A program made the translations under genes and the position numbers. From a virus (lineage: Duplodnaviria > Caudoviricetes), in IMG/VR virus record IMGVR_UViG_3300035672_000002, positions 1 through 62,787 of that record: 62,787 nucleotides of DNA; one strand, 5' to 3'. Every line of letters begins with the position of its first letter. The stretch's first letter is position 1. The notes below the pieces were generated by a model. The model had not been told where the DNA came from and searched no databases. It worked only from the letters and a program-made list of their open reading frames with translations. Shown here piece after piece: positions 400 to 62,729 of this stretch.

Positions 400-872
400 A
401 CGAGAACGGGTTAGATTCAGTAGAAGACTCAATAGAAAACTCAGTAGAAGAGCCGGAAACAGCGTCAGCGGAAGCAGCGTCAGCAAACTTGCTCGTCTAT
501 CGGTTGCTCCCTACTGACGAGTGGCCCCGCGCCCTCCCGTTTCTCTCTTACTGTTCACCCGGCGGGACTGTCAGCCTCGATCCGGACTCGCAGTCGATCA
601 TCGTGGCTGAAGATCACGACGGGAACATTATCGGCGCAGCCATCGTATCAGGTGTTTTCCACGTCGCGTATTTGCTTCCGTTGGCGAAAGAGGTCAATAT
701 ATTGACTATGCAGCGCGAGGTAGAGGCTCTCCTACCCGTTGGTATCCTGTATTACGTGATGACGAGGAACGGGAAAAACGTAGAAAGCGGGGTCAATCCG
801 GTACTCGGTGCTGATCTGGGAATGGTTCGATGCGATGGAACAATTTACGTTGCGAAGGTAAAGCATGAATGA
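396..872 (+). CDS. Putative GNAT-like protein
   Basis: YRLLPTDEW...IIVAEDHDGNIIG resembles the GNAT N-terminal strands; lies just before the internal virion genes. Confidence 0.45.
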   Translation: MNENGLDSVEDSIENSVEEPETASAEAASANLLVYRLLPTDEWPRALPFLSYCSPGGTVSLDPDSQSIIVAEDHDGNIIGAAIVSGVFHVAYLLPLAKEVNILTMQREVEALLPVGILYYVMTRNGKNVESGVNPVLGADLGMVRCDGTIYVAKVKHE

Positions 873-1383
873 ACTGATGACTACTACCGGCCCCACAGTA
901 GTGGACGGGGACGTTCATGCGAAGATCGATCAACTTGAAAACGCAATCCGTTCGCAGCTTCCACCTGTAGAATTAGAGACAATTCATCACTTTGCGCCTG
1001 GCGTGTACGCGCGGGAACTGCACATCTCAGCAGGCGTCCTCCTCACGGGCAAGATTCACCGTACTCGTCACCTCAATATTGTATCCAAAGGCCGTATCGC
1101 CGTATGGTCCGAAGCGACCGGATCAACAATTATGGAGGCTCCGGCGGCATTCGTTTCAGATCCAGGGACACGTCGTGTCGGTTTCGCCTACGAAGATACA
1201 GTCTGGACCACGATCCACCCAACTGACGAGACTGATCTGGTCAAACTCGAAGAACTACTGATTGAGCCACATACACCGATACAGGTTACCGGTGCGGATG
1301 TACCGAATTTCGTACTCGAATCACTGATTCACGCACTAGTAGACGGGGGTGAGGTAGCGGGGAAGAGTGAGGTAGAGCCATGA
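865..1383 (+). CDS. Cupin-fold protein
   Basis: HHFAPGVYARELHISAG...GKIH..RHLNIVSKG...PGTRR, a pattern typical of phage cupin-like proteins. Confidence 0.7.
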   Translation: MNELMTTTGPTVVDGDVHAKIDQLENAIRSQLPPVELETIHHFAPGVYARELHISAGVLLTGKIHRTRHLNIVSKGRIAVWSEATGSTIMEAPAAFVSDPGTRRVGFAYEDTVWTTIHPTDETDLVKLEELLIEPHTPIQVTGADVPNFVLESLIHALVDGGEVAGKSEVEP

Positions 1384-6069: not shown

Positions 6070-6091
6070 TGATGTACTGCTGTACTATGGC

Positions 6092-6496: not shown

Positions 6497-6506
6497 GGAG
6501 AACGCG

Positions 6507-6845: not shown

Positions 6846-6856
6846 TCCCCCTTCTG

Positions 6857-10947: not shown

Positions 10948-11358
10948 TCACACAATCGCTCCTGATACTCCGATACTGTGCTTGAGTCTCAGTTCTCGTT
11001 CGACCTTCCAGCGGAAAGACATAGGAGTCTGACGTAGCTCAATAATCAGGTCACGGTCTGCTGTCCAATCTCGTGTGTTTAGGGACGTGTTGATCTGTTG
11101 AGTTCTTATGCTCCACGAGACGAGCATGATGATCCCTCGAAACCACACAAAAAACTTAGGTTCCCTGAAGCCGGTGACGGCATACACACCTAGCCGATCG
11201 CTGTCTTCGAGGCCATCAGCAAACGTCCACACTCGATCACATAGATGGATATAATCCTTCAATGTCAACTCTATCCCATAGCGTTCCTTACATCGCTTCA
11301 TGGCATGGTTCCGCTGTCGAATACGGAGGCCGGCTCTAGTTCGCCTAATCTTTATCAT
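10948..11358 (-). CDS. Hypothetical protein
   Basis: HAMKRCKERYG motif; coupled to the polymerase stop. Confidence 0.6.
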   Translation of the reverse strand: MIKIRRTRAGLRIRQRNHAMKRCKERYGIELTLKDYIHLCDRVWTFADGLEDSDRLGVYAVTGFREPKFFVWFRGIIMLVSWSIRTQQINTSLNTRDWTADRDLIIELRQTPMSFRWKVERELRLKHSIGVSGAIV

Positions 11359-14363: not shown

Positions 14364-14897
14364 CTACTGGAGAAGTTCCGATCTTACCTGCGTCAGTAGT
14401 TGCCCGAGTACATTCTGCCCTTTACCCCGGAACATTCCCCAATAGACATCTCCCCAATAATTCCCTTCGATCATAATGGTTCCGTCAGTGGCAGTCAGTA
14501 ATCCTTTGTAAGGATGATCGCGGAACTTCAATCGCAGTAACTCCAGCATTACGCTTCTTTTGATCTGATCCCAATCAGGCCGGATCGTTAGACGACGGCC
14601 CATGCGTTTCGCGTCGCCCGGTGTACGGCAAGCCTGTATTAGGGCTGCTTCTCTATCGCTCAGCGTCTTTGCTGCTTGATATGCATGCTCCACTGTGGGA
14701 TAGATATTGCCCTCATAGGCGATTGACACGGGGGCGAAGTTTGAAAGCCATCGGTACTCGCGTGAGATATCGATGAAGTAGTTCAGCGCATGATCGCGGA
14801 CACTGAGATAGATTCTAAACTCAGTAGCAGTGTCCTTAATCCCTACAGTGAGTTGAGCCTCACTATTACTGTACGTAAATAGAGTTACTGTACTCAT
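14364..14897 (-). CDS. NADAR family protein
   Basis: LSNF...YPTVEHAYQAAK...AKRMG...W...M...LRLKF...EGN.WGDVYWG...GQNVLG.LL. Confidence 0.92.
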   Translation of the reverse strand: MSTVTLFTYSNSEAQLTVGIKDTATEFRIYLSVRDHALNYFIDISREYRWLSNFAPVSIAYEGNIYPTVEHAYQAAKTLSDREAALIQACRTPGDAKRMGRRLTIRPDWDQIKRSVMLELLRLKFRDHPYKGLLTATDGTIMIEGNYWGDVYWGMFRGKGQNVLGQLLTQVRSELLQ

Positions 14898-20420: not shown

Positions 20421-20666
20421 TTACTACTGCTACTGTCTTGCCGATATCCGTCCGATGCCCATGTCTGCTTTCAGAGTTCCGCGAACGCGGATTGAAGGTG
20501 GGATCATGAGGACTAGTTGGTGCGGGGGCATTCGGTCAATCAGTTAAGACAGAAGTAGAAGTAAATCGCCCCGAATCTGCACAGCTCGGGGCCACACTGC
20601 CAGTAAAGCAGCTCGCCAGAGAGTAGGGCTTTGAAGCCGGTGACGAATTGCCCGCGCAGACTGAAA

Positions 20667-21578
20667 CTAGTCGTTCGGTGTAATAACGCCCGTTTTCTTT
20701 GAGAACTTGTAAAGCTGCTCGGCGGCGTTCTCCGTGTGGAACGACGCGTCGTTGATCAGGTTGCTCGCCGGGCCTTTGATATCCTTGCCCTTCAGAATAC
20801 CGAAGCTCGCGGTGTACGCCTGCTTGATGGTGATTCCACCGCCAGCAGCGTCCTCGTCGAAGTTCTTCACGAGCGGCGTCTTTGTTGCGAGTGACGTGAG
20901 GATCGCGTCCATTGCCTGAACAGCAGCGGCGTGGATCGGATCTTCGGTACCTTCTTCAGTATCATCATCGGCCGATGCTTCGTCATCGTCGTCATCATCA
21001 TCGTCAACCGCAGCCGCTTTTTTCTTCCCGCTCGCCGTCGTCGCCGTTCCAGCAGCAGTCTTCCCTGACGTCTTCTTCCCTGCCGACTTTCCATCCGGTG
21101 CGTCGACCAACTCGTCGACAAGCAGATCCGTGAACGGGGTACCGTCATCCTTCGGCTTACCAGTTCCCGCGACTGACTTCAGTTTCACCCACAGTCCATC
21201 AAGTCCGCTCGCATCTTCGATATCATCGAGAATTTTGAAAACACGCAGGCGTTCCGACTTTGCTACTTCATCCGCTCCGGCCGCATCTTCGATCGATGCA
21301 AGCAGTTTGCCGGCTGCGAAATCCGCACTGATCGTGCAGTCCCGTGACTGATCAACGCTCTTGATAATTCCCCCATCGACACGTGTGAAACGCTGATCGC
21401 CCATGTAGAATTTTTTCAAGTACTCCGTGCCATCAATGTCCAGAAAAACTGTCTGAAGATTGACAATGTCTTTTCCCCGACTCGATTCGTCCTCCTTCCA
21501 CTGCGTATCGCTGAACTGTACTACCGCTCCATCCAACATCCCTTTGGTCATCTTGCTCTTACGTCCCGATACTGACAT
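20667..21578 (-). CDS. Putative ssDNA-binding protein
   Basis: Beta-rich N-terminal domain, Lys-rich and poly-Asp linker; first gene of the recombination operon; AAGGAG RBS. Confidence 0.5.
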   Translation of the reverse strand: MSVSGRKSKMTKGMLDGAVVQFSDTQWKEDESSRGKDIVNLQTVFLDIDGTEYLKKFYMGDQRFTRVDGGIIKSVDQSRDCTISADFAAGKLLASIEDAAGADEVAKSERLRVFKILDDIEDASGLDGLWVKLKSVAGTGKPKDDGTPFTDLLVDELVDAPDGKSAGKKTSGKTAAGTATTASGKKKAAAVDDDDDDDDEASADDDTEEGTEDPIHAAAVQAMDAILTSLATKTPLVKNFDEDAAGGGITIKQAYTASFGILKGKDIKGPASNLINDASFHTENAAEQLYKFSKKTGVITPND

Positions 21579-21662
21579 ACGTTGTTGCTCCTTTCGTTAG
21601 TACGACGCCTAGTTTAGATTTAGTAGAAGACTCCGCCACCACAAACAAACATCAGTAACGGA

Positions 21663-21691
21663 AGAGTAGGATAAAGTTGACTGAGAGTCAA
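21663..21691 (-). promoter_or_regulatory. Sigma70-type promoter with palindromic operator
   Basis: TTGACT-17 nt-TACTCT on the minus strand; palindrome TTGACT-GAG-AGTCAA at 21677-21691. Confidence 0.7.
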
Positions 21692-21706
21692 GTCCGAAGA
21701 TCACAC

Positions 21707-22207
21707 TCACAACGGCAATATGCCACCGAGGAGCACGTTCAACGGTCGGAACACTTGGCCGATGTTGAACACGGCGCCGCAGCGATCTTTCACGTTGTAC
21801 CATAGCGGCAGATTGGTGATCGTCGCGCGCTGCTTCACCCGCAGCGCCTCTGCACCAGAGATCAGGCCGGTGACCGTCACTGCCGGAGACAACAGCGCGT
21901 CGAGGAAGAGTAGGTTTGTGGTGAAGCACTGCACGCCGATGTCGTCCTTCGCGGCGGTCGCGCCGACAAGAGCATTCTGCGTATCGACGCGTACGAACTG
22001 GATGGCGTTCGCGAGATCTTCCTGCGGGTGACCGGTGAGCGCGATCGAGCCAGACGACTCGGGAATGGGCGGTGGGATCGACTGAAGATTGTCGGGTGCA
22101 GCGACCGGTTGCGGAGTGTTGATGGTGGTGGGTGCGCTAAACGGGTGAGTGCCGGTTGCGCATCCGGTTGCGATGATGAGAATCAGCATGAGACCTACGT
22201 GCTTCAT
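21707..22207 (-). CDS. Lipoprotein
   Basis: MKHVGLMLILIIATG-C lipobox; AAGGAG RBS. Confidence 0.7.
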   Translation of the reverse strand: MKHVGLMLILIIATGCATGTHPFSAPTTINTPQPVAAPDNLQSIPPPIPESSGSIALTGHPQEDLANAIQFVRVDTQNALVGATAAKDDIGVQCFTTNLLFLDALLSPAVTVTGLISGAEALRVKQRATITNLPLWYNVKDRCGAVFNIGQVFRPLNVLLGGILPL

Positions 22208-22254
22208 TTCTTCGCTCCTTTTTTTAGCTGTCTGGGGGTCTCGGGCTCGTCTCA

Positions 22255-22617
22255 TCAAAACTTACCCCGATGAGTGATTGCCGCGTTGGCGATCATGCGC
22301 GCATCAAACAGGCCATCGATGGCGCGAGTCCTCAGCGGAGACTCCGGTACCATGCGGAATACCACCTCGGCAGCGGCTATAAATGCCTCGGTAACTTCTC
22401 TGCCCGCGGCAACTTGAGATTGATCCCACGGCGCGTAGGTGAAAGCCTCGCGAACGTTGCCGAGAATCATGCGAGCATCTACCGCTCTCTGACTGCCCAC
22501 CCCCGCAGAAGCCTTGGCGAGCCCGCCGATTTCCGATTCGAGGTTCTTTCTCAATTCTGGATTGGACTCCATCTGTGTGATTCTCCTCTCGATTTCTGCC
22601 AAATCAGGATTGCTCAT
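22255..22617 (-). CDS. Acb2/Tad1-like helical-hairpin protein (possible cyclic-nucleotide sponge)
   Basis: FTYAP...Q...REV...P.SP.RT.AI..L.DARMIANAAI resembles the FxYHxP...CPxSRExSxAxTxLEEAxMWANAxI family pattern. Confidence 0.6.
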   Translation of the reverse strand: MSNPDLAEIERRITQMESNPELRKNLESEIGGLAKASAGVGSQRAVDARMILGNVREAFTYAPWDQSQVAAGREVTEAFIAAAEVVFRMVPESPLRTRAIDGLFDARMIANAAITHRGKF

Positions 22618-22696
22618 CGTCTTCTCCTTCGAAGGTGGGAACAAATTGAGGATCACTGATGCAACCGCACTCCTCGCATGCGTCTTCACGTTTCAT
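22604..22696 (-). CDS. 30-aa acidic CxxC peptide (MKREDACEECGCISDPQFVPTFEGEDDEQS)
   Basis: AAGGAG RBS; not in the ORF track; overlaps the start of the next gene. Confidence 0.45.
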   Translation of the reverse strand: MKREDACEECGCISDPQFVPTFEGEDDEQS

Positions 22697-22718
22697 CCGG
22701 TTCTCCTTGTTCTATTCA

Positions 22719-22864
22719 TTGAAAGATTCCGCGACCGCCCGAGATCCGATGTTTACCGCATCCCGTGGGCGACCCCGTAGGGTATCGAATGCCAGCCACC
22801 CCCGATGTGCTATCCGTTTGGTGTAGGTGTTGGACCTGGTTTCGAGCGGTCGCGCAGCCTTCAA
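22719..22864 (-). ncRNA. Candidate structured RNA (long irregular hairpin, 6S-like architecture)
   Basis: 13-bp stem 22730-22742/22842-22854 plus outer UUGAAGG/CUUUCAA, central A/C-rich bubble, apical cUACGg tetraloop. Confidence 0.5.
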
Positions 22865-22880
22865 ACCTCGTTCTACCACT

Positions 22881-23933
22881 TTACCCCCTCCTCCCCGGCG
22901 TTCTACCCTGCCTCGGCGTGGGGATTGCGGGAATCACTGGCGCAAACACCGCCGCCAACCTCTTACCGCTCTCACTCATCTCCGGCGTCCCGTGCGTGAA
23001 CGTGCTCCAGGGATCTGGGGCAGGTTTGCGTGTGAAGAATACTTCGGCCGATTCGAACGTGACCACCGGCGCGTGGAGTTCGTCCCGCATCCGAACGGAG
23101 AATGTGGTCAACCGGTCGACCTCTTCATCGGTGGCGATCGAGCGTGCCGTGCGGCCTGCATCTTCAGCAGCAGCCTGCGTCATACCCTTCGCTAGACACT
23201 CAGCGATCGTGTCGTCGCGGCGTTTCTTAGCACTGCCCATCTCTTGGTGGTTGATCTCGCTGATGATGAGGGGTCGTCGCGCCCGATCGTCGGTAACGCT
23301 AAACCGAGATATCGATATGTCCACGAATCCCGGCTCGCTATTACTGCCAGTCATCCTCGCATAGTGGAGTCCTTCGCCGTCCGAAACCTCGCGCTCTCCA
23401 TACGGATGGACGAACCACTGATTGACATCAACAAGGTTAACGAAGCGCTGCAACGTGTCCGCTGACTCTGCGTCTGGTCCGCCGATGGTGATGCTCGGAT
23501 TCGCCCGGCGCACTCCGCGGATGAACGGGAGCCAGAAGTTGTCCACGTACTCCTGCATGTAGTCACGCGAACCGACCTTTGAAATGTCGTCATCGCCGAA
23601 CGTGTATCCGGGTTCGTTGCCGAAGGATACGGATGTCATCTGCTTGCCCCAGCGCATCATCCAAACGAACGCACTTTCCTCAATCTGAGATTGCGTAATA
23701 GGATTCATGCCGTCATCGGGCGCACAGAAGTTACCGTGAATCTGCATGCCGCCGTCCAATGCACCAGCGAAAGCGTCTGGCCACCAACGAGCGTCTGAAT
23801 AGAGGTATTGAAGTCTGACGCCCGTCACGTTGCATTGTTCGCGCAGGAAGCGCCACGATGCGGCCGATGGAGGTTCTGGGCGCCACGGAACAGGCTGGAA
23901 GGGGACGAAACAGATTCGCGCTTCGACGGTCAT
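22881..23933 (-). CDS. Glycoside hydrolase-like TIM-barrel protein (clan GH-A-like)
   Basis: SFGNEP (acid/base), IGGP, VHPY, IISEI (nucleophile). Confidence 0.65.
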   Translation of the reverse strand: MTVEARICFVPFQPVPWRPEPPSAASWRFLREQCNVTGVRLQYLYSDARWWPDAFAGALDGGMQIHGNFCAPDDGMNPITQSQIEESAFVWMMRWGKQMTSVSFGNEPGYTFGDDDISKVGSRDYMQEYVDNFWLPFIRGVRRANPSITIGGPDAESADTLQRFVNLVDVNQWFVHPYGEREVSDGEGLHYARMTGSNSEPGFVDISISRFSVTDDRARRPLIISEINHQEMGSAKKRRDDTIAECLAKGMTQAAAEDAGRTARSIATDEEVDRLTTFSVRMRDELHAPVVTFESAEVFFTRKPAPDPWSTFTHGTPEMSESGKRLAAVFAPVIPAIPTPRQGRTPGRRG

Positions 23934-24103
23934 TTGACCTCCTTGGGCGTAAACAGATGTGAGTGGTCTTCCGGATTACAGAGATAATCCTTCTCCGATT
24001 CGCTCGTTCCATAGTCCCACGGATCTAACGTGTCGTGATGCACCATTCCCTCGCGGTCGCACCATACGTAGCCGTGGATCTTCTCCATCAACGATTCAGC
24101 CAT
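23930..24103 (-). CDS. Hypothetical protein
   Basis: AAGGAGG RBS; overlap-coupled. Confidence 0.55.
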   Translation of the reverse strand: MAESLMEKIHGYVWCDREGMVHHDTLDPWDYGTSESEKDYLCNPEDHSHLFTPKEVK

Positions 24104-24392
24104 TCGCAGCCTCCTTCGGCGCGAGACCCATCTCGGTAGCACCTTCGTCGCCGTCTGGTAGGCCACGTCTGCGTGTAGAGTCGTTGATCGCGATCTGCTC
24201 GATCTCGAAAATCGCCATGTTGGTATCGAGGCGCACTCGAAATGCTCTTGCGCGCATTTCTTCGACGACATCGATCTCCGTAAGCAATTTTGCCTTTGCT
24301 TCAGTGAGGTGGGCAATCGCAGTTTCGCGCCAATCGGCGTAGTTGAACTGCTCGCCATCGATGACTGCTTGAATTCTGTCGATTAAATTCAC
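24096..24392 (-). CDS. Hypothetical protein
   Basis: ORF in operon. Confidence 0.55.
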   Translation of the reverse strand: MNLIDRIQAVIDGEQFNYADWRETAIAHLTEAKAKLLTEIDVVEEMRARAFRVRLDTNMAIFEIEQIAINDSTRRRGLPDGDEGATEMGLAPKEAANG

Positions 24393-24395
24393 TGC

Positions 24396-25568
24396 TCAAT
24401 TCCCCCTCTTACGATCGTTCTCAACATCTCTCTCCGTGATCGCCGGAGCCTCACCGCCGATCATCTTCCGAGCCTGTGATTCCGCAAGTCCGACGTTGAC
24501 TCCCCTACAAGCTAAAAGTCGTGATCGATACAAGTAATAGAGCGCCGCATCGTCAGCCCCCTGCTTCATCGCCAGAGCGTTCGCGGTCAGTGAAGCCAAC
24601 GCATCAGTCCGGAGCGCCATAGCGAGAACGGTCCGCTGCACAGCACTCTGCGCCAATTGTTTGCTCTGATCGGGGATCAACCAATGCGCAGGAATCGTCA
24701 TCGCCGCGCCACTCGGCAACGTCATCACTCCGAGCGCCAAGAACGCAGGACACGCATCGCCAACCGGACACCCCTCCGTGACCTTCACACTATTCGTCTG
24801 CTCGATGACAAAGTACGGACTATCGAGCGGCGGGAGACGGTTCGCCCGGTTGATCGCGAATACGGGGAAATACTGTGCGACATTTACAATCGCGCTCTCC
24901 AGTGGACCTAGCGTGTCGGAGATCCCGCCTTGGCGAACGCCGAAGCGATCGTACAGCGTGAGCAGCACGGTCGTTCGGCTGTACTGACTGGCGTTCGCGA
25001 TGTAGATCGAGAAGTGAGTGACGCCATCTTCACGCACCGCATCGATCTCCAATCGGTCCCGGCCTGGGTAGTCGCTCGACGCGTAATCGAACCACGGAAT
25101 CCCGTTTACCGTCTGTCGGTGCGTGCCAGACTTCCCGTTCACCGCGATCTCCACTTCCGTCTCCACGAGGAATGAACTCTCTAGGTCATTGCTCGTCTGG
25201 TCGTGCTGTAACCACGGTGCGACATCCGTTCGGTAAGCGTTGAACACTACTATGCCGATCCCTTGAGCGGTCAGCTTCTCTGCGAATCCTGACGGCTCGA
25301 AGCCGATCTGATGCGGTGCGAGTCGGATGACGTTCCCGTGTTCGATCGACAGTGGATAGGCCGGGTCGTTGTCCGTCTGGCCGGCTGGAATGAACGTCGC
25401 GCTGATCGACAGCTCGTGGCTGGTCAGGTTCGTCAGCCGTACGTGCGAGTAGTACGTCTTAGCTCCGGTGTTCAGGTTTGCGAAGCTGAGGAGGTAGGAC
25501 TGGTCAGCGCCGGATTGGGCGAAGGCTGAAGTTGCGGCTAGGAGGAGGGTGAAGATGATTTTCTTCAC
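24396..25568 (-). CDS. Secreted beta-rich protein
   Basis: Signal peptide MKKIIFTLLLAATSAFA-Q; two repeated beta-sandwich-like segments. Confidence 0.7.
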   Translation of the reverse strand: MKKIIFTLLLAATSAFAQSGADQSYLLSFANLNTGAKTYYSHVRLTNLTSHELSISATFIPAGQTDNDPAYPLSIEHGNVIRLAPHQIGFEPSGFAEKLTAQGIGIVVFNAYRTDVAPWLQHDQTSNDLESSFLVETEVEIAVNGKSGTHRQTVNGIPWFDYASSDYPGRDRLEIDAVREDGVTHFSIYIANASQYSRTTVLLTLYDRFGVRQGGISDTLGPLESAIVNVAQYFPVFAINRANRLPPLDSPYFVIEQTNSVKVTEGCPVGDACPAFLALGVMTLPSGAAMTIPAHWLIPDQSKQLAQSAVQRTVLAMALRTDALASLTANALAMKQGADDAALYYLYRSRLLACRGVNVGLAESQARKMIGGEAPAITERDVENDRKRGN

Positions 25569-25954
25569 GGCTCGTTCGCCTTCTTTTCGTCGAGCCATGC
25601 GGCCCGCTCGTTCTTCTCTTCTACGGAGGTTTCGGGACTGAACGTTAGTTCGTCAACGATCGCACGGACGCAGTCTTCGATTCCCGTGTCGTACTCCGGC
25701 GACGGATTCTCGCCAGGAAAGTTGCGGCTGCCCTTCAACTCGCGCATGCTGCGAACGAGACTCACGATCGCGGCGATCATCTCATCAGTGCGTGCGCGGA
25801 GGTAATCAGCGTCTGACGATGACGCAAATTCAGGCTGATTGTTTGAAGCAAACACGACTCTGCCAGCCCCCTCGTTAAAACACTTGCCGAGAACCGGATT
25901 GATCTTGTCGCGTACGAAATTGAAGTCAGTCATCCGTTCATCCTTTCCGCGCAT
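25565..25954 (-). CDS. Hypothetical protein
   Basis: ORF in operon; probable start MTDF. Confidence 0.55.
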   Translation of the reverse strand: MRGKDERMTDFNFVRDKINPVLGKCFNEGAGRVVFASNNQPEFASSSDADYLRARTDEMIAAIVSLVRSMRELKGSRNFPGENPSPEYDTGIEDCVRAIVDELTFSPETSVEEKNERAAWLDEKKANEP

Positions 25955-26101
25955 TCATGGAGGGTTGGGAGTTGATCGACACGGTGATGTGACACGATTC
26001 GTCGACGCACGAAACCATCGCGACAAGTAGAAACGCAATAAATATCCGAAGTGGATCGTCCATGAACCAAGTAATCACACCCTTGAAAGTTCTCACCATG
26101 C

Positions 26102-26353
26102 TCATGACGCATGCCCCGGTAGCGCGCATGGCTTGCGGTTGATACAGCGGCCCATCGGCTTCGTGATCCCCGGAGGAACCGTGACGAGCAGGATGACGTC
26201 ACACCGATCTTCGAGTGGAGGAAGATCTGCTATGGAAGAGCCAGATGCTCCATTCGCGCAGACGATCGCTAATAGATAACCAATGACTGTGCCAATGCCT
26301 GCGCCAAAGAAGACGTAAAGGAAGGCGGTCAGGAAGACGTCAGAGAACTTCAT
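26102..26353 (-). CDS. Membrane protein
   Basis: GGGGAG RBS; N-terminal hydrophobic helix. Confidence 0.6.
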   Translation of the reverse strand: MKFSDVFLTAFLYVFFGAGIGTVIGYLLAIVCANGASGSSIADLPPLEDRCDVILLVTVPPGITKPMGRCINRKPCALPGHAS

Positions 26354-26418
26354 GATGTTGCTCCCCCTTGTGTCTCATTCGCATCAGTATAGGTCACTCC
26401 TCGCCCCACAGTCAACTA

Positions 26419-28083
26419 TTAATACTTCAAAGGTCTCGGAGCAGTTTTCACGTACGTGATAGCCTGCCGTATATACTTCGCCAGATTCCTCCACTTCTCT
26501 CCCCCTGTCAGTCCGCCGAACGCTGCATCAGTGACAATCGTCTCCCCCCAATCCGTCTCCGACCTCACGTGCCTCCCTACCGTCTGACTAAACTCAGTAG
26601 CGGCGTACACATCCTGGTACGTATGGTCGCTCGCGATCCTCGCCTGCATCACCGCGCTCTCTCTCGACGGATACGGAGTCTTCGCTACGATGATCGTCCT
26701 CACGTCGTCGTCAGGGAAGTCCCACCCTGTACTCACTGACGGCGAAACCAGCACTGCGGGAGGAGACATTCTTCGAAACCTTTCTACGGCATCCTTTGTC
26801 GACTTCGGGTCGTGCATGACGAACGATCCGGCGCGCTTCGAGAGCTGTTGGAGTTCCCGCGCGCGCTTGTAACTCACAGTGGGGATCAGTACCTTGCGAT
26901 CAAGTCGCGCCGCCAGTAAGCTGTCAGTAGCTTCCGCCCACTTCACCTTCGCCTGGTCTGACATCGTGTAATTCATTCGAACGATCGGCCAGACGTAGAT
27001 CGGCCGGCGTCGGATGTCGAACGGACTCGCGTACTCGAAGAAGTCATACGTTCCCTCTTCGATTCCGAGATACCGAAGCGTCGCGGGTACGACAGTAGCG
27101 GACATACCCACGACTACCGGGATGCCGCGGAACAGCAACTTCTCGGCGTACCTGTCAGTCCACACCGGGTCGAACGACAACTTGCTGTCCGAGATTCGTT
27201 CTACGATCCACCGTCCGTACATCTGCCCGAGGTCGGAGAGGTCGCGATCGAGTCCTCGCAGCGTACTCAGCTCGTCGATCAACTCTCTTCGCACGCCTCC
27301 GTCTTCATGAGCGAGTCGCAGTTCTCGTGAGATCCGATCGAGCTTCGACGCCAACGCGACCCGTAGCATTCTTCCCCACTCACGCCACTCTTCTACTGAC
27401 GCCGACGTGGAGATCGGATCGTGCCCTAGAATACGTCTGGTCATCGAGACATCGAGGTCGACGTGCAGAGCCTTCGCGACGTGCGACTCCGCGGCGTGCA
27501 GCTCGTCGAGAATAATGTAGTCGAACTCACCGAGCCCTTCGTCAGCATCCGTCTCGCCACGACGTTGCATCGACTTGCCGGTGGTCAACCAGTAGTCGTA
27601 GTTGGAGATGACGATGTCGGCGGATCGAGCGGCGCGCAGAGCGTCGTACCGGGGACATCCGCCGGACTTGAGACTGCATTGTGCACCAGTGAGACATGGT
27701 CCACGATCGGCCATGGCGGTCACTTTAAACGGACCAGGCTTCCGAAGATACGCATATTCACCGTGCGGACGGAGTGCGGGGCAGACGTAATTAGAAGCTC
27801 CGCGGATATCGGCGACTCCGATGTCCCGTCCGACTTTTACGTAAACGTCTTGGAGAGCTTTAGTAGACGTGAGAATCAGTCCACGTGCCTGTTCGAGTAC
27901 GAGTGTAGTGAGAGCGATGAGAGTCTTGCCGACGCCGGTCGGCGCATTAAGGATACGGAACCGGTGGGATGCATCAGTAGCGTCGAAGATCGCTTCGGTC
28001 TGAGTAGGACGGAAGGAAGGGAAGCGTGCAGCGGGGAAGCCGAGGGCTGAAGGGGGAGGGAGGATGCGACGCCGTGAAGTCAC
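26419..28083 (-). CDS. DinG/Rad3-like SF2 helicase with Fe-S-type Cys cluster
   Basis: FRPTQ Q-motif, APTGVGKT, NYVC...C...C...C, DELH, MSAT, TGWDF, QTVGRHVRSETD. Confidence 0.9.
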   Translation of the reverse strand: MTSRRRILPPPSALGFPAARFPSFRPTQTEAIFDATDASHRFRILNAPTGVGKTLIALTTLVLEQARGLILTSTKALQDVYVKVGRDIGVADIRGASNYVCPALRPHGEYAYLRKPGPFKVTAMADRGPCLTGAQCSLKSGGCPRYDALRAARSADIVISNYDYWLTTGKSMQRRGETDADEGLGEFDYIILDELHAAESHVAKALHVDLDVSMTRRILGHDPISTSASVEEWREWGRMLRVALASKLDRISRELRLAHEDGGVRRELIDELSTLRGLDRDLSDLGQMYGRWIVERISDSKLSFDPVWTDRYAEKLLFRGIPVVVGMSATVVPATLRYLGIEEGTYDFFEYASPFDIRRRPIYVWPIVRMNYTMSDQAKVKWAEATDSLLAARLDRKVLIPTVSYKRARELQQLSKRAGSFVMHDPKSTKDAVERFRRMSPPAVLVSPSVSTGWDFPDDDVRTIIVAKTPYPSRESAVMQARIASDHTYQDVYAATEFSQTVGRHVRSETDWGETIVTDAAFGGLTGGEKWRNLAKYIRQAITYVKTAPRPLKY

Positions 28084-28382: not shown

Positions 28383-28723
28383 GGATGCACCCGTACGATT
28401 GAGTATTCTTCGACGAACCGGTCAGCCATCAGTAACGGGAGGTGAAGAGTGCAGTAGACGAATGATTCACCGGTAGGACACAGATCCTGCGTCATCTTCG
28501 TTTTCACGACGGACCACAGATCCCTCACACACTCTTGTTCGGTCCCACGCTGACGGACGTACGAACACCTCTCCCCGGTAGTCTCTACCGTCATCGCGAC
28601 ATCTACTGTCACGAACCTCGGAGTGGATTGCACTGCTCCATAAGCATCAGGCACAGCGCGCTCATTCTCATCCAGCCATCGCGCCAGCGTATCGCTCGCT
28701 GCCGCCGGGAATAGCCCTGTCAT
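28379..28723 (-). CDS. Hypothetical protein
   Basis: GAGGAG RBS; ATGA-coupled. Confidence 0.55.
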   Translation of the reverse strand: MTGLFPAAASDTLARWLDENERAVPDAYGAVQSTPRFVTVDVAMTVETTGERCSYVRQRGTEQECVRDLWSVVKTKMTQDLCPTGESFVYCTLHLPLLMADRFVEEYSIVRVHP

Positions 28724-29658: not shown

Positions 29659-29988
29659 ATGAAGAAATCAGACCCTAAAACCGAAAGACCTAATAACCTA
29701 AAGACCGATGACTCGAAGTCGTGTACCAGAGACTTATCCTCAGTAGAGCTGCGCGATCTAGCGCTTGCCGCCGACTGCACGGTCTCGTACGTCTCTCGTG
29801 TCTTCAGCCACGATCCGAAGCAGTCTCGCGGGCTTACGCTCGTCCGCGCCCACTTGTTTGCTGACTACCTGGGCGTGACGCTCGACGACCTGTGGAAGAT
29901 TCTTCACGGGTCTGCGTCTACTGACGTGAATGGAAGTAAACGATCCGCGAAGCCGGTAGATAAGACACGAGTGCGGAAGGATCACTGA
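29659..29988 (+). CDS. XRE-family HTH transcriptional regulator
   Basis: LRDLALAADCTVSYVSRVF...LTL..A..FADYLGVTLDDL; the only + strand gene in the minus arm. Confidence 0.8.
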   Translation: MKKSDPKTERPNNLKTDDSKSCTRDLSSVELRDLALAADCTVSYVSRVFSHDPKQSRGLTLVRAHLFADYLGVTLDDLWKILHGSASTDVNGSKRSAKPVDKTRVRKDH

Positions 29989-30568: not shown

Positions 30569-31090
30569 CTAGGCGGTGACTTCATCACTCGATGACTCGG
30601 CTTCAGTAGCAACAGCCGGCGGAACGTCAGTATGCTCAGGCTTCGACTTCGATGCTGCCTTCGACACCTTCGATGTCTTCGGTGTCTTCTCCGTTTTCAC
30701 CTTTGCTACTTTCTTCACGGGCTTCACGGGCTTCACCGGCTTCACAGCTTCCTTCTTCGCCGATTTCGGAGGCGCCCCGATGCGCACACCCAACTTTTCA
30801 GCGACTGCGGCGAGAATCCATGTAGACATCTTCACAGCAGCTTTATCAGCGGCCACGCGGATCTTGTCACGTGTCGCTTCTGGGCCCCAGATGACAATCT
30901 GTTTGAGACCGCGTTTCTGCGCCCATGCCGTCGTCGAATCGACCGTCTTACCGCTCGTATCGGCCTTCTTCTCGGCGACTTTCTTGCTTGACTTCTTCGT
31001 TGCCGGTTTCGACGCCGACTTCGGCTTCGCTTTTACTTTCGTCTTCGCTGCTGTGGGCTTCTTTTTCGTTTTCACGCTCTTATCTTTCAC
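30569..31090 (-). CDS. RHH DNA-binding protein with histone H1-like Lys-rich arms
   Basis: KQIVIWGPEATRDKIRVAADK...MSTWILAAV flanked by K/A/P-rich repeats (KPVKPVKPVKK). Confidence 0.7.
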   Translation of the reverse strand: MKDKSVKTKKKPTAAKTKVKAKPKSASKPATKKSSKKVAEKKADTSGKTVDSTTAWAQKRGLKQIVIWGPEATRDKIRVAADKAAVKMSTWILAAVAEKLGVRIGAPPKSAKKEAVKPVKPVKPVKKVAKVKTEKTPKTSKVSKAASKSKPEHTDVPPAVATEAESSSDEVTA

Positions 31091-31374
31091 TGATCGTTAC
31101 TCCTTGAGTCGAAGACAGTAGCAGAGTCAGTAGTCGGATGCAAGCCCCGTGCAGTAGCCATGACGTAACCAGCGTGTTTCTCGTACATAGCAGCAAGACG
31201 ATCACCGAACGCATACAGGTTTGGGAGCGTCTGTTCCTCGACTAACTCTGACGCAATGAACTCTCCGTCGATATTCGTTTGACAAGCTAGAACGAGAAGA
31301 CGTTCCGCCTCCTCTGCTGTATTAACACTGAACACCGGCAAGAATCCACGAGGGCACTTCGGACCGAAGCGCAC
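31087..31374 (-). CDS. Hypothetical protein
   Basis: LPVFSVNT..EA..L.VLAC. Confidence 0.6.
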   Translation of the reverse strand: MRFGPKCPRGFLPVFSVNTAEEAERLLVLACQTNIDGEFIASELVEEQTLPNLYAFGDRLAAMYEKHAGYVMATARGLHPTTDSATVFDSRSNDQ

Positions 31375-35509: not shown

Positions 35510-35872
35510 ATCCTTTCACTGCGCTGAGCACTCCATCAACACATGCAATCTGTGGAGTGCTCAACTCAGCGCAGCATCGCGCGTGCTTTCACACGTCTAC
35601 CTTGGCGATGCTGATACTGAATCGGTCGTATGGCTCGCATCCCGTGCTCCGTGACCGCGTACGTTCGACAACCTAGTAGGCTCCCGCCGCCCACGCTATC
35701 AAGTCACTCGCGGGGGAGTATCGTCGTCGTTCACGCCGTCATCCTAGCTACTCGAATGCCGTCCTGACCGCAGATTGTCAAACGAACCTACCGGTTTGCG
35801 CTATCGTCAGGGTCGCGTCGTCCCGACGTTGACCCCACCGTTCCCGACCGCGCTCCGTACTGCACCTCTACT
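35510..35872 (-). ncRNA. Candidate ~360-nt structured leader/ncRNA
   Basis: Between a consensus promoter and the first gene; stems include UGAGCACUCCA/UGGAGUGCUCA, GCAUCGC/GCGAUGC, CCUGAC/GUCAGG, CAAAC/GUUUG. Confidence 0.45.
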
Positions 35873-35878
35873 GAAGAC

Positions 35879-35907
35879 AGTATATGTCTGACCTCTACTG
35901 ATGTCAA
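35879..35907 (-). promoter_or_regulatory. Near-consensus sigma70 early promoter
   Basis: TTGACA-17 nt-TATACT; TCAGTAGAGGT in the spacer and again near +1. Confidence 0.85.
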
Positions 35908-36525
35908 CAGATTTCACATCTATTTCATGAAGATTCTTCCAGGTCGTATCCCCGTTTCTCTACCTTACTGTCCTCTCTCACGTATCACCCTCACTCGAAT
36001 ATCGCTACTTGAGTATCGAAACTCCGGTATCGTTAATCGAAATGCGTAGTTCCACCCCCGAATTCTACCGACTTCCACCGACTTTCCACCGGGCTTCCCG
36101 CCCGAATTCCGCTCTCCCTCCCTCGCTCCCCAACACACTTGTCACGTCCGTCACTACGTTAGTACGTCAGTAGTTAGTTCCGTCACGACGTCACTCCATA
36201 ACGTGCCACCACTACGTGCGCCGCGAAGTACTAGAACGCATCACGTACTCCGTACCGCAAAGTACTTCGTACTCGCGTGCTGAATGTCGAACGTCGGATG
36301 TCGTGTCTGCGGTCCGCGCGTGTGTGTGCTCGAACAGGTGCGGACGCTACTGACTACTGACTACGCACCCACACGCCTCTACTGATGTACAGACCTGCAC
36401 CTCTACTGATGTAGTTACTTACGGAAGTAATTGTCCGCGGCTGTACGGTAGGGAGTGGGGAGTCGGGCGCGCGGGAGGACGCACGGCGAAAAAATAAATC
36501 ACCCAAAATAGTTACTTCGACGGAC

Positions 36526-37317: not shown

Positions 37318-38193
37318 ATGAAGAAGAAGCGCACGAACGACCACGACGACTCTTCGAACGGACGTCGTCGTCGCAGATTCATCCGCAAGGTGGCTGAGCG
37401 CCCTGGCCGTCGTCCCCGCGCGAAACGCGATCCGTCTCTCGGGCCACCTGCCCCTCCCGTCCCACCTGTCCTCCGTGAGCGGGCGTCGTCGAAAAGCCGT
37501 CAGGTCGGGCAGAACCTGTACGACCTTCTCGGTGGCCGTGACGAGATCGTCAACCTGCTGCCTGTCGATCCGAAAGACTTGAAAGCATCTGCTCTGCGGG
37601 ACGCGCTGATGGACACGAGGCACGTAGACACTGACGGAGGGTTGAAGAGGCGTTTCGATACGCTCTACCTCTCCGCCGGCTACTCCGCGAAGGATCTGTT
37701 CGAACTCTTCGACAACCGGCAGCAGGCGCACGCGTTAGTAGTAGCGTCAGCTGCGAAGCCGCGACTCGTGGGCGAGCTGGTTGACGCGGCATCGGTGAAG
37801 TTTGTGCCGTGTGACGTCTGTGGTGGTGAGATAAGAGTGGCACGAACGGACGAGGACGGGGAGTTCGTGCGATGGGACGTATGTCCCGTCGAGCATGCGG
37901 ATGAGCGAGGACGTGTGACGGTCGACGGGAACAGAGCCGCGCGGGAACTCTACTTCGAGCAGTTCGGCTTCAAGCAGTCCGCGCCGCTCGTCAGTATCGA
38001 TTCGCGTCAGGATAACAGGCGGGTGTCGTTCGTCATGGGGATGCCGGGGACGAGTCCGTCTCCGCTGGCATTGATTAAAGCATTGGAGCTGGTGCCGGAC
38101 GTAGGGGCGTCAAACAGACAGTTGACAGAAGCTACTACTGAAGGTACGATGCATGCGATGAGTACAGTAGATGCGGAGATAGTCGAACAATGA
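37318..38193 (+). CDS. Possible terminase small subunit / Zn-finger protein
   Basis: CDVC...C motif, helical core, upstream of TerL; inferred from position only. Confidence 0.4.
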   Translation: MKKKRTNDHDDSSNGRRRRRFIRKVAERPGRRPRAKRDPSLGPPAPPVPPVLRERASSKSRQVGQNLYDLLGGRDEIVNLLPVDPKDLKASALRDALMDTRHVDTDGGLKRRFDTLYLSAGYSAKDLFELFDNRQQAHALVVASAAKPRLVGELVDAASVKFVPCDVCGGEIRVARTDEDGEFVRWDVCPVEHADERGRVTVDGNRAARELYFEQFGFKQSAPLVSIDSRQDNRRVSFVMGMPGTSPSPLALIKALELVPDVGASNRQLTEATTEGTMHAMSTVDAEIVEQ

Positions 38194-39625: not shown

Positions 39626-39933
39626 GGGGGCGTACTGGTTTCGACGGAATAGTACGACCTCGATTAGCACGCCGGTAAGGAGCGACCGCAACAGCCCAAA
39701 AACGCACAAACGCCAACACTGATAATGTCGTGTACGCGAACTTCGGCGAGGGTGTCTCCGACGCCCCGACCCAGATGAGCGAACCCACTCCGTGGGCGCC
39801 CATGGCAATCGCAGCATAAGTAGTTCTCACTTTCCGCCCAACAGCAGACAGCCACTGCGCAAAGGGTAAGCGTGTAAAGCAGATCGAGGAAGTCTAGTTT
39901 CGGACGCGGGTTCGACTCCCGCCGCCTCCACCA
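39626..39933 (+). ncRNA. ssrA: tmRNA (308 nt); tag reading frame 39712-39819 ANTDNVVYANFGEGVSDAPTQMSEPTPWAPMAIAA*
   Basis: 5' GGGGGCG pairs with CGCCUCC-A-CCA including G3:U; GGTTTCGAC 5' motif; GGACGCGGGTTCGACTCCCGC T-arm; GCACGC/GCGTGT and CCTCGAT/ATCGAGG helix 2; tag ends in AA. Confidence 0.95.
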
Positions 39934-47839: not shown

Positions 47840-49035
47840 AGAAACTATCGCTACTACCGCTACTGCCGCTACTGCTGCTACTGACGTTTCTATACGCTAC
47901 TACTCTGTGGGGACAACAAGGCGGAATCTCGTCTCCATACGCCGACCGTTTCCGTCACGTCGTTTTCCTCAATCTGGGGACTCCGCTCGCAGGCCGCGTC
48001 TACTACTGCGATAACTGCTCTTCTACTTCTCCATGTACGAGCGGAGGCACCGGCGCGGTAGCCTTCAGGATCGGGACGGCGTGGAACTGCTCAAATGGTG
48101 GAAGTGGGGTAGCAACACCCGTGAGTGCGGCCAACGGGGGGACGGGGCAATCGACCTACACGAAGGGCGATCTGTTGGCCTCACCGGGTGGAGCAGTACT
48201 CAATAAGTTGGCCGTAGGCTCAGATACCCAAGTCTTGACCGCAGACGCGGCTTCGCTGAACGGGATGAAATGGGCAGCGGCAGGCGCTGGCGCGAGCGCT
48301 CCATTTTCCGACGGCACCGCGCTCATAAAGAATAACGCTGACGCCACCAAGCTGGCGATTTTGAGCACCGCCTCTATTTCTACAGCCACCACGAGGACCT
48401 TCACTCTACCTGATGTGTCCTCCACGCTGTTGACGAGCGACGGCTCCGTGATCGCGGCGGATACGACAACTCAGAAGTTCACCAACGGCGTATCGCTTGG
48501 AGCAACTGCTACGACTCAGGGCGCTCTTCAATTTTTCGACACATCCGGCGCACACTCTGTGACGTGGAGAGTAACGACCGCGAGCACGTCACCGCGGCAG
48601 TGGCAACACGTCGCGAACTTCACCGCCAACCGAACGTTCACCTGGCCGGACGCCACCGTTACCTTAGTTGGTGATACCAATACTCAAACGCTCAGCGGGA
48701 AAACATTCACCTCGCCAACCATCAATAATCCGACCATCAGTCAGCCGACGATCAACACGGGGATCACCTCTGGGACCGGCTTCCAGCACATCCGTGTCGC
48801 ATCGTGCACGACAGCTATCACGATCAACGCCTCATGCGACACGACGATCACCTGGCCGGTCGCGTTCGCGGACACGAACTACACGACCAGTGCGACGCTC
48901 GATACTCCATCCGGGGGTCTTGTATTCGTCCTCAGTACAAAATCAAAAACGACTACCACAATGGTGGTCACGTTGGTCACGTTGACGGCAGCCGCGTCCT
49001 CGGGCACGGTAAACGCCATCGCAATACACGACTGA
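47836..49035 (+). CDS. Tail-fiber-like protein with N-terminal signal peptide
   Basis: GGTG...KGDLL, VLTAD, RTFTLPD, TQTLSGKT fiber motifs; WPVAF.DTNY C-terminal domain; MKKLSLLPLLPLLLLL N-terminus. Confidence 0.7.
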   Translation: MKKLSLLPLLPLLLLLTFLYATTLWGQQGGISSPYADRFRHVVFLNLGTPLAGRVYYCDNCSSTSPCTSGGTGAVAFRIGTAWNCSNGGSGVATPVSAANGGTGQSTYTKGDLLASPGGAVLNKLAVGSDTQVLTADAASLNGMKWAAAGAGASAPFSDGTALIKNNADATKLAILSTASISTATTRTFTLPDVSSTLLTSDGSVIAADTTTQKFTNGVSLGATATTQGALQFFDTSGAHSVTWRVTTASTSPRQWQHVANFTANRTFTWPDATVTLVGDTNTQTLSGKTFTSPTINNPTISQPTINTGITSGTGFQHIRVASCTTAITINASCDTTITWPVAFADTNYTTSATLDTPSGGLVFVLSTKSKTTTTMVVTLVTLTAAASSGTVNAIAIHD

Positions 49036-55444: not shown

Positions 55445-55461
55445 TACTGACGATTCGATAA

Positions 55462-56706: not shown

Positions 56707-56726
56707 GAAGAGAAGGAGACTACATC

Positions 56727-56915: not shown

Positions 56916-56931
56916 ACTCTACTGATGTTCA

Positions 56932-58404: not shown

Positions 58405-58409
58405 TCGTC

Positions 58410-61400: not shown

Positions 61401-62729
61401 GCGCACATTTATACCGTCGGCGGATCTGCTGACAACGGCACCGACGCCGGTACTGCAATCGCGTGCCAGTTCACGACCTACGCGTACGACGCCAATGATC
61501 CACGAGCGCAGAAACAGTTCGGTGACACCGACGTAGACATTAACCCCGGTGGAGCGTCAGTAGCAGTCGCGGCGAAGTTCGACAACCTGAACGTCTCCGT
61601 TACTCCGTCAGCATCTCCGCTCACCGGTGCTTCGAGGACTCTGACGGTCCTCGACTTCAGTAGCGGCTCCGGTCAGTTCGCCCGCAACATGGCGTTGGAT
61701 TGCTCATGGTCGAATGGAGCGAACCAACGTCCGCGCTTCTATCTCTGGGAACCGGCGTACATCATCCACCCTGAAGACACGCTTCGACGCGCCACTGATT
61801 ACGATTTCACGGAAAGCGGTCTCGGCTATGTCCGCGGTCTCTGGGTGGATGCTGACACAGCGGGTGTCAGCCGTACGATCGATCTCAACTACATCGACTA
61901 TCTCGGCACCGCGCAGACATACACGATCCACGTCAACCACCCCGTGAAGAGCAGAATCTTCTACCCCGTCAGTCCGACTCCCTTCTACTGCTCCACGCTA
62001 CGTCTTCATCCGAACGACGCGTCGTCGTGGAAACAGTATTCGTACCACCTCGTAACTGATCCTGCGCCACCCTTTTCTACTGATCTCACCGCCTTTACTG
62101 ATGGCGGTGACCAACGTAATAAGTTCCTTCAAGGCGCACGCGTGAAGATCGATACACACGGGACGTCAGTAGGATTAGAGGTTCAAGGAGACGCTGGTGC
62201 GGTCCTCGGGACGTTCACAGGTCTCTCGTCCGTTCTCCCGACTGTCGTCCCGATCGTCCTCAACCCCGCCGTCCGCACTCACCTCGCGCGCATCCGCCCG
62301 CTCAACAGCGTCCATCTCTTCGAGGTCACGTGGGACTGGCAGTCGGATGCGGAGCTAGTCTCGTACTATGAAGGTCAGGAGTCGTCGTTCGACATCCCTG
62401 GATTCAAGCACGCGCGGGAAGTCTACGTCGCGTATTCGTCAGCGTCGGCACCACTCACACTCACACTCATCGCGGACGGCGTCGCCATCGCAGGCATTCC
62501 GCCGCTTCCGATCTCTGCTTCCTATACTCGCGTGCGTATCGTCATACCGGCGAGGAAGTGGAAGGCCGTCAAACCGTACCTGACGTCAGCGTCACCGTTC
62601 ATGCTGTACTCGCGCGACTCGAACATTCTCGCGAAGCCGTGGGGTGACATGGGTGACGGTGGCGGGGACTACCGGTCGTTTGAACTCTTCGGGACGTTGC
62701 ATCGAGACAGAGGGATTGCCGTCGTCTAG
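58410..62729 (+). CDS. Tail nozzle / DNA stabilization-like large structural protein
   Basis: 1439 aa beta-rich; LKNV...GSIEPRAG start; LYWTK, WLASDGIY, LTD..L.PLF propeller-like motifs. Confidence 0.65.
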   Translation: MVDFTRPGRFSFSARGVDLNTPVDQLRDSGYFYYLKNVDTLTDGSIEPRAGLTERYSSGGAYMPIFGKTPHHTFLRLNDTSSGSSAWTLIHGIGDALAVERSSTIGTLILLDSGYSTHPLSISIYRPPRAVQPWAYVGDSSRMRKLRQDVTTPAVHLIGLPAPTFEPVAWPSTGVFKTIDLFEPTGGGSGYTRWTAAGTGAVIGAVAGKRVNSAQIGVTPFETVSGADEISLIAPASMANIGVGMVLNILEAGPGNENVLVTQVNKGSSTLTVSSIIYDAGTSGLAAVVLSAAVREITTNSMLFNSTRSEYVRVRSINSATDGTFSVRVSTNTTWAATDSVTAQPSFVCHPLGAAPVAAGSAISEALNVTATAGTATFTQTIALDLSQLSYLSTVSPSSLDDFMHISIFVDHPELITSLRLLLDIDSLIPDFTQNYYFRDITPSDLTPVAHNSQSVLDNRAAQVTNRILDRGNRLDSRTFIGESDQGNINEDPAGIGLTGAGDGGVGTTPAEPPRTQATSGDNQWSEIIFPLNAMEKIGADDSRGFKNISKIRIQVICTGTVSISFDSWLIEGGFAPVIEPENGEFGYLYTYRARASSTGAVSDLSPLCRGESNARRQRVAVQLQQYVAATEVDYLDVFRIGGPLPVPCFVGSVANTATPVFFDTFDNTSVFNNQTAGGTFDSADPDLQPWPETDIPHSGTATFVSGTTVQSSAQFNASWLPGTIIVVDGIATTIYRMISTSKLEVNDSLGSRTNVAWNINEPVIGGQPFEILWGDFHDHLLAVGSKKNPGSLYWTKPKNPDSTSRSRRLEVTSNSDPLLNGFIFNGRAGIFSSKNLYYLDYNPSDPEGIIFAANVSPNDKGLYARWAMAVGRRGVAWLASDGIYIMQGSGAVSLTDKRLRPLFRHGDRPGVDTNGIPAPLMPNPVGAEEVYLRLFFDHNDNLRFIYRDASANMQCLFYDFASEGWRPFTYGKSITDFYAEEGPGVINTIAGSAETTAHIYTVGGSADNGTDAGTAIACQFTTYAYDANDPRAQKQFGDTDVDINPGGASVAVAAKFDNLNVSVTPSASPLTGASRTLTVLDFSSGSGQFARNMALDCSWSNGANQRPRFYLWEPAYIIHPEDTLRRATDYDFTESGLGYVRGLWVDADTAGVSRTIDLNYIDYLGTAQTYTIHVNHPVKSRIFYPVSPTPFYCSTLRLHPNDASSWKQYSYHLVTDPAPPFSTDLTAFTDGGDQRNKFLQGARVKIDTHGTSVGLEVQGDAGAVLGTFTGLSSVLPTVVPIVLNPAVRTHLARIRPLNSVHLFEVTWDWQSDAELVSYYEGQESSFDIPGFKHAREVYVAYSSASAPLTLTLIADGVAIAGIPPLPISASYTRVRIVIPARKWKAVKPYLTSASPFMLYSRDSNILAKPWGDMGDGGGDYRSFELFGTLHRDRGIAVV

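Follow-up and report, generated by a model that had tools for sequence, protein, structure and literature searches.

A short DNA word selected at silent sites throughout a soil phage genome, and its possible role as the binding site of a phage protein

Introduction

A virus genome recovered from soil raises the question of what a very short DNA word is for when it recurs in both strands, and mostly inside genes, over almost the whole length of the molecule. The genome is the entire IMG/VR virus record IMGVR_UViG_3300035672_000002 (Duplodnaviria; Caudoviricetes), a window of 62,787 bp with a G+C content of 57.0%, assembled from the one soil-metagenome run found to contain it (as contigs, depth about 8–10), and the word is TCAGTAG, which reads CTACTGA in the other strand. 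An initial annotation, made from the letters alone, had estimated about 65 copies of this heptamer and about 110 of the hexamer core CAGTAG/CTACTG, and had taken them for a selected DNA signal, perhaps the site of a genome-organising protein, a self mark or a priming signal. Counting gives 66 and 118, and all 24 of the example positions that it quoted are present in the hexamer list. A literature search did not find CTACTGA/TCAGTAG mentioned together with bacteriophage, nor anything relevant on over-represented heptamers in phage genomes. The element is written here as D-CAGTA-D, where D stands for any base that is not C:

417..62172, both strands: D-CAGTA-D as a dispersed word, at its best as TCAGTAG; the heptamers number 66, the hexamers 118 and the five-letter cores 230.

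The reading proposed here, held tentatively and with somewhat less than even confidence, is that the word is a binding site of a phage protein, selected for its density, and that its reader is probably the lysine-rich ribbon–helix–helix (RHH) protein encoded at 30569–31090.

The word is selected at silent sites

The heptamer occurs 40 times in the plus strand and 26 times in the minus strand, a density of 1.05 per kb, against 5.25 ± 2.36 copies (largest value 13) in 100 dinucleotide-preserving shuffles, and the 118 hexamers compare with 17.9 ± 4.3 expected. The initial annotation had proposed that the counts be set against higher-order Markov models and a codon-preserving null. At Markov orders 0 to 3 the heptamer is the top-ranked 7-mer throughout, its 66 copies standing against 6.2, 5.3, 8.6 and 17.2 expected. 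The enrichment also survives the shuffling of synonymous codons within genes, which leaves 17.0 ± 2.5 heptamers and never more than 23 (150 shuffles), and the shuffling of codon order, which leaves 13.6 ± 2.2; both codon nulls retain 9 intergenic copies unshuffled. When all 7-mers are ranked against the synonymous null, TCAGTAG comes first (66 vs 18.0, z = 11).

The word fills a large share of the places where it can be written without changing a protein. Permissive amino-acid contexts number 184 and 56 of them carry the heptamer, compared with 4.0 expected from codon usage; by frame, TCAGTAG occupies 17/33 and 9/49 contexts, and CTACTGA 8/56 and 22/46. The contexts themselves are not more numerous than expected (183 vs 180.5 ± 11.7 when amino-acid order is shuffled). 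Therefore, the word is written by means of synonymous codons, rare ones included, and the proteins are left alone. This is a real signal, strongly selected at the DNA level, as had been claimed.

Constraint is limited to the five-letter core and its two flanks. Each single change in CAGTA lowers the enrichment to 0–3 fold, so the core is strict, while the flanks are graded: on one side T is enriched 12-fold, A and G about 5-fold and C 1.7-fold, and on the other side G is enriched 12-fold, T 6-fold, A 4-fold and C 1.9-fold. Both flanks can thus be summarised as "not C", with T and G favoured. Outer positions hold at most 0.36 bit, and their preferences among the 66 copies are weak (C at −2 in 53%, A at +1 in 44%, G at +3 in 53%); they match an extended form, ACATCAGTAGAGGT, which is present four times in the control region described below.

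The gene calls are simple open reading frame (ORF) calls made in this analysis, on which the tallies of sense, antisense and intergenic copies depend. They place 57 of the 66 heptamers inside ORFs, 30 in sense and 27 in antisense, with 9 between genes, and the copies use four frames. The earlier description of copies on both strands, in various frames, within and between genes and with no orientation relative to transcription is thus borne out. The cores are divided 125 to 105 between the strands. Inverted pairs of cores are at expectation, with 5 opposite-strand pairs within 15 bp compared with about 6 expected, and same-strand pairs within 60 bp number 42 compared with 25 expected. No periodicity of spacing was found at 3, 7, 10.5 or the further periods tried, nor any end bias of the copies along the genome. 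The word reads as a double-strand signal whose copies act singly.

Clusters and extended copies at control regions

The ORF calls form three blocks by strand: the genes run plus up to 8.8 kb, minus between 8.8 and 35.7 kb, and plus again beyond 36.6 kb. The densest stretch of the word, with 8 heptamers, lies between 35868 and 36580. The annotation had correctly pointed to 35.8–36.6 kb as the densest region. The features of this region, and of two further places where copies are gathered, are the following:

35864..35904, minus strand: extended copies (ACATCAGTAGAGGT-like) in the spacer of a leftward early promoter and immediately past its −10 element, two in all and 27 bp apart.
35879..35907, minus strand: sigma-70-like promoter TTGACA-17-TATACT, 11/12 matches, the best such site, reading into the minus-strand gene block.
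36166..36361, no strand assigned: inverted repeat built of the word, arms 36166–36184 and 36343–36361, 19 nt, 84% complementary.
36347..36412, minus strand: four copies in the same orientation, two of them contiguous (36347–36360) and two extended, 24 bp apart (36375–36412).
38122..38170, plus strand: second sigma-70-like promoter, TTGACA-17-TACGAT, with a copy in the spacer (38135) and a hexamer after the −10 element (38165).
31116..31157, minus strand: three CAGTAG copies within 42 bp, immediately before the RHH gene begins.

Both TTGACA-17 promoter-like sites hold two copies apiece in the same layout, and at the first of them the extended form lies in the spacer and near the transcription start, just after the −10 element, where it had been placed before. 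Clusters of at least three hexamers number 3 against 0.58 expected (P = 0.02), and lie at 36347–36408, at 47860–47883 and, in front of the RHH gene, at 31116–31157. Only one pair of heptamers is contiguous (36347–36360), the remaining clustered copies being 11–36 bp apart.

Between the divergent gene blocks, 35920–36340 holds many short direct repeats (such as TTCCACCGACT-like units 10 bp apart) and GTAC/ACGT words. The region may be a replication origin.

A candidate reader

Two proteins encoded by the phage are considered as regulators, of which the first is the candidate reader:

30569..31090, minus strand: RHH candidate gene, 173 amino acids, 24% lysine, whose core of about 50 residues (51–100) models as an RHH dimer.
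29659..29988, plus strand: small gene on the opposite strand inside the minus block, a possible helix-turn-helix regulator with a weak match to Pfam HTH_3 (E = 0.19).

In six homologues of the RHH candidate the core, about 50 residues long, is almost unchanged, while the tails on either side, rich in Lys, Ala and Pro, vary; two of the six are on contigs of 63,044 and 65,610 bp, which are the sizes of the contigs of the closest terminase relatives. Among the four related genomes compared, a lysine-rich protein of this kind is found only in the present phage. The monomer is modelled as a coil followed by two helices, with a predicted local distance difference test (pLDDT) value of about 70 in the core. 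As a homodimer, residues 45–105 score 0.44, compared with 0.00 for the best of three controls. Of proteins with solved structures, 20 of 30 that are pairs of one chain attain this mark, as does 1 of 23 that are single chains. The dimer runs agree in at least 92% of contacts, with a partner pLDDT of at least 70, and the contacts (66:66, 68:63–65, and helix 92–100 against itself) describe an antiparallel strand pair at 62–69 and a helix–helix core. RHH dimers read short units through such a two-stranded sheet. Of the proteins previously named as RHH, the one at 30569–31090 does resemble such a protein, in its conserved core, in its monomer and dimer models and in its rows in the fold search given below. 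That at 28720–29439 gave no evidence of an RHH fold, and the helix-turn-helix assignment at 29659–29988 is a weak one, made from its HTH_3 match.

In the proposed mechanism, the phage would make a DNA-binding protein that recognises D-CAGTA-D as its specific unit, the RHH protein being the likeliest reader. Clustered and extended copies would then serve as operators: those of the early control region, those in the two promoters and those just ahead of the gene for the protein itself. Single copies at silent codons would be landing sites of low affinity, loading a protein with histone-like basic tails onto phage DNA, so that selection would act on copy number and not on the position of any single copy. 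The purpose of loading could be the coating, compaction, silencing or self-marking of the DNA. A more specific proposal, which is rather doubtful, is a sequence-coded phage chromatin, in which the RHH protein would nucleate on phage and not on host DNA and would coat, compact or shield it, the word doubling as an early operator and related lineages perhaps using other words.

Several observations weigh against this proposal. RHH dimers are common among solved structures, so the passing dimer score may reflect likeness only. The top rows of the Foldseek search are Arc, ParG, CopG, PutA and AmrZ, all with E > 1 and none significant, and the protein matches no Pfam family or PDB sequence and has no relative in a search of IMG/VR. 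RHH readers of 7-bp units are known to need adjacent units, and most copies here stand alone. The link between protein and word is a predicted one, drawn from placement and plausibility. Clusters are few, and the overlap with promoters is small, since 4 of 24 promoter-like sites genome-wide hold the hexamer compared with 2.1 expected, so the argument from promoter placement is carried by the two best sites. Finally, a binding word taken alone leaves unexplained why the word is missing from blocks such as 20.4–26.6, 31.2–34.7 and 5.3–8.4 kb.

Stretches without the word

The longest of these blocks is an island inside the minus-strand genes, and the two others are shorter word-poor gaps:

20436..26594 (gap from 20430 to 26595), minus strand: island free of hexamers over some 6.2 kb; a promoter-like site of its own lies at 26415.

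The island sits between two replication genes whose homologues are 2.4 kb apart in a distant relative (G003, introduced below). For its two largest proteins the Atlas look-alikes, which are leads only, are glycosyl hydrolases and hypothetical proteins found most often in Acidobacteriota, and not a primase. The island is read as accessory DNA acquired later, in which the word has not yet been taken up.

Relatives

The initial annotation had looked to related phages for conservation, and the distant relatives examined do not share the word. Three complete genomes hold 4 (G001), 11 (G002) and 3 (G003) heptamers, a 72%-complete one (G004) holds 6, and four partial relatives with 33–42% terminase identity hold 0 to 2 each. 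G001 and G002 share only structural genes with the phage, and neither has a stand-out word. G003 (IMG/VR, 66,322 bp; loci L180–L183) also shares the replication module, which comprises PolA, UDG, NADAR, nuclease, AAA_24 and helicase, and it has a word of its own, YGAAG/CGAAG, with 769 copies against 433 under synonymous shuffling (ACCGAAG, 102 vs 40), found on both strands, in every frame and evenly spread over the genome. As CGAAG is looser, and GAAG-type words are common in the group, this parallel is a lead only; it may be a parallel case or an effect of codon context.

The closest terminase homologues have 94, 85, 65, 65 and 62% identity. Scans of IMG/VR and of metagenomes gave relatives at no more than 42% identity, the phage collection gave no near match, and a scan of IMG/VR with the extended 14-mer gave single matches only, none of them in a relative. 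Judged from the proteins alone, the amino acids at six terminase sites would still allow the word in 5 of 6 cases in the 94% relative, in 2 of 6 in the 85% relative and in 1 of 6 in a 65% relative, which suggests that individual sites turn over.

Gene content and other words of the genome

The recognisable genes encode a family A DNA polymerase, a UDG-superfamily protein, a NADAR protein, an AAA_24 ATPase, an XPD-like helicase, a large terminase and an SU10-adaptor-like protein, and nearly all the remaining genes are orphans. A PHROGs search matched none of 10 early orphan proteins, and a Pfam search of 56 further ORFs gave nothing useful. No methyltransferase, primase, integrase or partition families were found among the ORFs scanned, and no lysogeny genes were found in the genome. 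The polymerase (11355–14345, minus strand, 996 amino acids) aligns to other phage polymerases over only about half of its length, in two pieces; in G003 the polymerase and the UDG-like protein form a single ORF. The adjoining NADAR-domain gene (14364–14897, minus strand, E = 2e-22), which has a 51% identical homologue in G003, shows the top density of the word, with 13 cores per kb.

Other words also depart from expectation. Six 6-bp palindromes are nearly absent, with both-strand counts, relative to order-1 expectations, of 2/79 for CTCGAG, 2/52 for GAGCTC, 2/46 for GGATCC, 0/35 for CCCGGG, 0/26 for CTGCAG and 2/23 for GGGCCC, and CCAG is depleted genome-wide; taken together, this looks like heavy restriction avoidance. 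GATC is enriched over the synonymous-shuffle null (1058 vs 782 on both strands, z = 9.8), as is CGATCG (160 vs 95). The 8-bp palindrome GTTTAAAC has three copies (16635, 46847 and 58636) against 0.3 expected.

The likely host and its use of the word

The phage carries a full-length transfer-messenger RNA (tmRNA) gene at 39626–39933 on the plus strand (Rfam RF00023, 99.5 bits, E = 1e-37). One frame of it ends in PMAIAA followed by a stop, which would make an unusually long tag; the differing tag given by ARAGORN is implausible. Its 3' end matches 136 of 151 sampled Acidobacteriota genomes, often over 36/36 letters and identical to ssrA ends (134 of 149 when G033 and G058, which are flagged as unpublished and are ordinary rows, are left out), while five genomes of five other phyla gave two weaker matches. 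Within the phage collection, the terminase is matched best by those of Tunturiibacter phages (20.5% identity). Because of the tmRNA, the matches of its 3' end, the soil sample and the terminase matches, the host is likely to be a member of the Acidobacteriota.

In most of the 151 genomes the word has fewer copies than its reversed control, and it has more in about a dozen; the three densest genomes reach 0.27, 0.17 and 0.135 per kb. It is thus not borrowed from host composition, as far as the phylum goes; an equal frequency in the host, which the initial annotation had named as an outcome that would speak against selection, was not found in these genomes of the likely host phylum.

A scan of bacterial genomes for three close copies gave more than 120 matches. 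Most are heptamers in tandem arrays, from a wide range of phyla, and no genome has the word spread over its whole length. One member of the Acidobacteriota (G008; L195, L304–L313) has dozens of intergenic elements made of inverted tandem arrays of the heptamer and near variants, about 60–100 bp apart, many of them immediately preceding a start codon or following a stop codon, with 859 heptamers compared with 507 for the reversed control. Similar arrays are present in Planctomycetota, Gemmatimonadota and filamentous cyanobacteria. These genomes were picked by the search for arrays, so a link with the phage may be chance.

Alternative explanations

The word could instead be the site of a replication or recombination enzyme (a primase start, a nick TACT/G or a topoisomerase-like site), extra copies making initiation frequent. 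This is unlikely, although a strict asymmetric five-letter core with graded flanks, acting singly on either strand, is what such a site would look like, and although stand-out words were found only in this phage and in G003, two of four genomes, both with the PolA–UDG–NADAR–nuclease–AAA_24–helicase module. A precedent is found in the localized single-strand nicks of phages tf, T5 and phiKMV, likewise PolA-encoding phages; the 14 nick sites of tf, 9 bp long (TACT/RTGMC), have TACTG in common with the core and are all in one strand (PMC3517423). In contrast, the present cores are hundreds in number and lie in both strands, and the tf consensus is not enriched in the genome (36 vs 29.1 at no more than one mismatch). 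The enzyme families in question, primase, nickase and topoisomerase, were not found in the ORFs scanned. Nor are close pairs on opposite strands avoided, as they should be if every site carried a standing nick, and the operator-like placement at promoters would be left unexplained.

A Chi-like signal, or the site of another host factor, would have its copies gathered so that the phage is treated as self or recruits the factor. The lambdoid phages LLS and MD8 offer the model, since their most over-represented short asymmetric word is the host's own Chi, present once per 1–2 kb and selected in number rather than in place (PMC12315714); the apparent turnover of the terminase sites, and the tandem or inverted heptamer arrays between genes in some soil bacteria, also fit. 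Yet in LLS and MD8, 20/23 and 32/32 sites are in one orientation and crowded toward one genome end (PMC12315714), whereas the present heptamers run 40 to 26, the cores 125 to 105, and no end bias is seen. Nor do the 151 genomes of the candidate host phylum show enrichment of the word, the host itself being assigned by prediction, and the phage may not lack recombination functions, as it has matches to AAA_24 (E = 2e-9) and, weakly, to an ERCC4-like protein (E = 0.007). A Chi-like role is quite improbable.

Slightly less probable again is a self mark, in which a host enzyme or an unrecognised phage enzyme would modify a base of the word. An asymmetric site of 5–7 bp is typical of many methyltransferases, and the many early orphans without a library match leave room for such an enzyme; nevertheless, methyltransferase and other modification families were not found in the ORFs scanned, being a target gives no obvious reason for enrichment, and the near absence of the six palindromes is expected of DNA that relies on the loss of sites and not on modification. 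The least probable explanation, a functionless by-product of context-dependent mutation or repair bias, of a drive like very-short-patch repair or of the avoidance of other words, agrees with the word-level sculpting of the genome (palindromes, CCAG, GATC) and with an accessory island that lacks the word, as expected if enrichment accumulates slowly, but words one transition away from it show no depletion, its extended and tandem copies sit at promoters, and the enrichment at silent opportunities is about 14-fold, where known repair drives yield far less.

Comparison with known systems

The binding of a phage protein, as favoured above, has a counterpart in the operators of plasmid RHH proteins. 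Omega of the inc18 plasmids reads non-palindromic 7-bp units in either orientation, in a few arrays of contiguous heptads, and is not known to use dispersed copies. As with omega and ParG, the unit here is a non-palindromic 7-bp word that would be read by a symmetric RHH dimer, which on the dimer model is encoded by the element itself, and arrays stand before promoters and before the protein's own gene; unlike theirs, the heptads here adjoin one another in one pair only, the bulk of the copies being isolated and genic. The DNA uptake sequences of Neisseria and Haemophilus are 9–12 bp features of bacterial chromosomes tied to competence. They resemble the word in occurring about once per kb, in both orientations, mostly within genes in tolerant frames and as inverted pairs between genes, and they differ in being bacterial and longer, the word being a phage-specific one of 5–7 bp. 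In the 151 genomes of the candidate phylum, to which the host is predicted to belong, its density is at least 4-fold lower than in the phage. In its statistics the word most resembles these uptake sequences, which are not known as a feature of phages.

Two further short signals were considered and set aside. TACTG..CAGTA, the LexA half-site arrangement at SOS-box spacing, occurs 0 times, and the cyanobacterial HIP1 palindrome has 0 copies in the genome.

Stoperators of cluster A mycobacteriophages are asymmetric 13-mers conserved over their full length, with more than 20 per genome, located at promoters and in short intergenic gaps and oriented with transcription (PMC9283540). In a stoperator system the sites are bound by a temperate phage's immunity repressor; the ORFs scanned here gave no integrase or partition family. 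Both systems have many asymmetric, single, non-palindromic sites across a phage genome, some of which lie at promoters as operators. Three stoperator features are nevertheless lacking here: a full-length consensus of about 13 bp, since 5–7 bp are conserved; placement at promoters and between genes, since 57 of 66 copies are inside genes; and an orientation linked to transcription, the copies standing 30 to 27, which sets the word apart from stoperators. No known phage signal behaves quite like the TCAGTAG word.

Significance

Dispersed recognition words of phages are known in two forms, stoperators and Chi, both of which depend on orientation, whereas TCAGTAG is orientation-free and mostly genic. 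An orientation-free word filling about 30% of its silent opportunities points to a strong, density-dependent use of sequence that has no name in current phage biology. As to method, word statistics over whole genomes, set against codon-preserving nulls, can reveal such signals in uncultured phages. Should the lysine-rich RHH protein prove to be the reader, the phage would offer a simple case of a virus that distinguishes its own DNA from that of its host by sequence alone.

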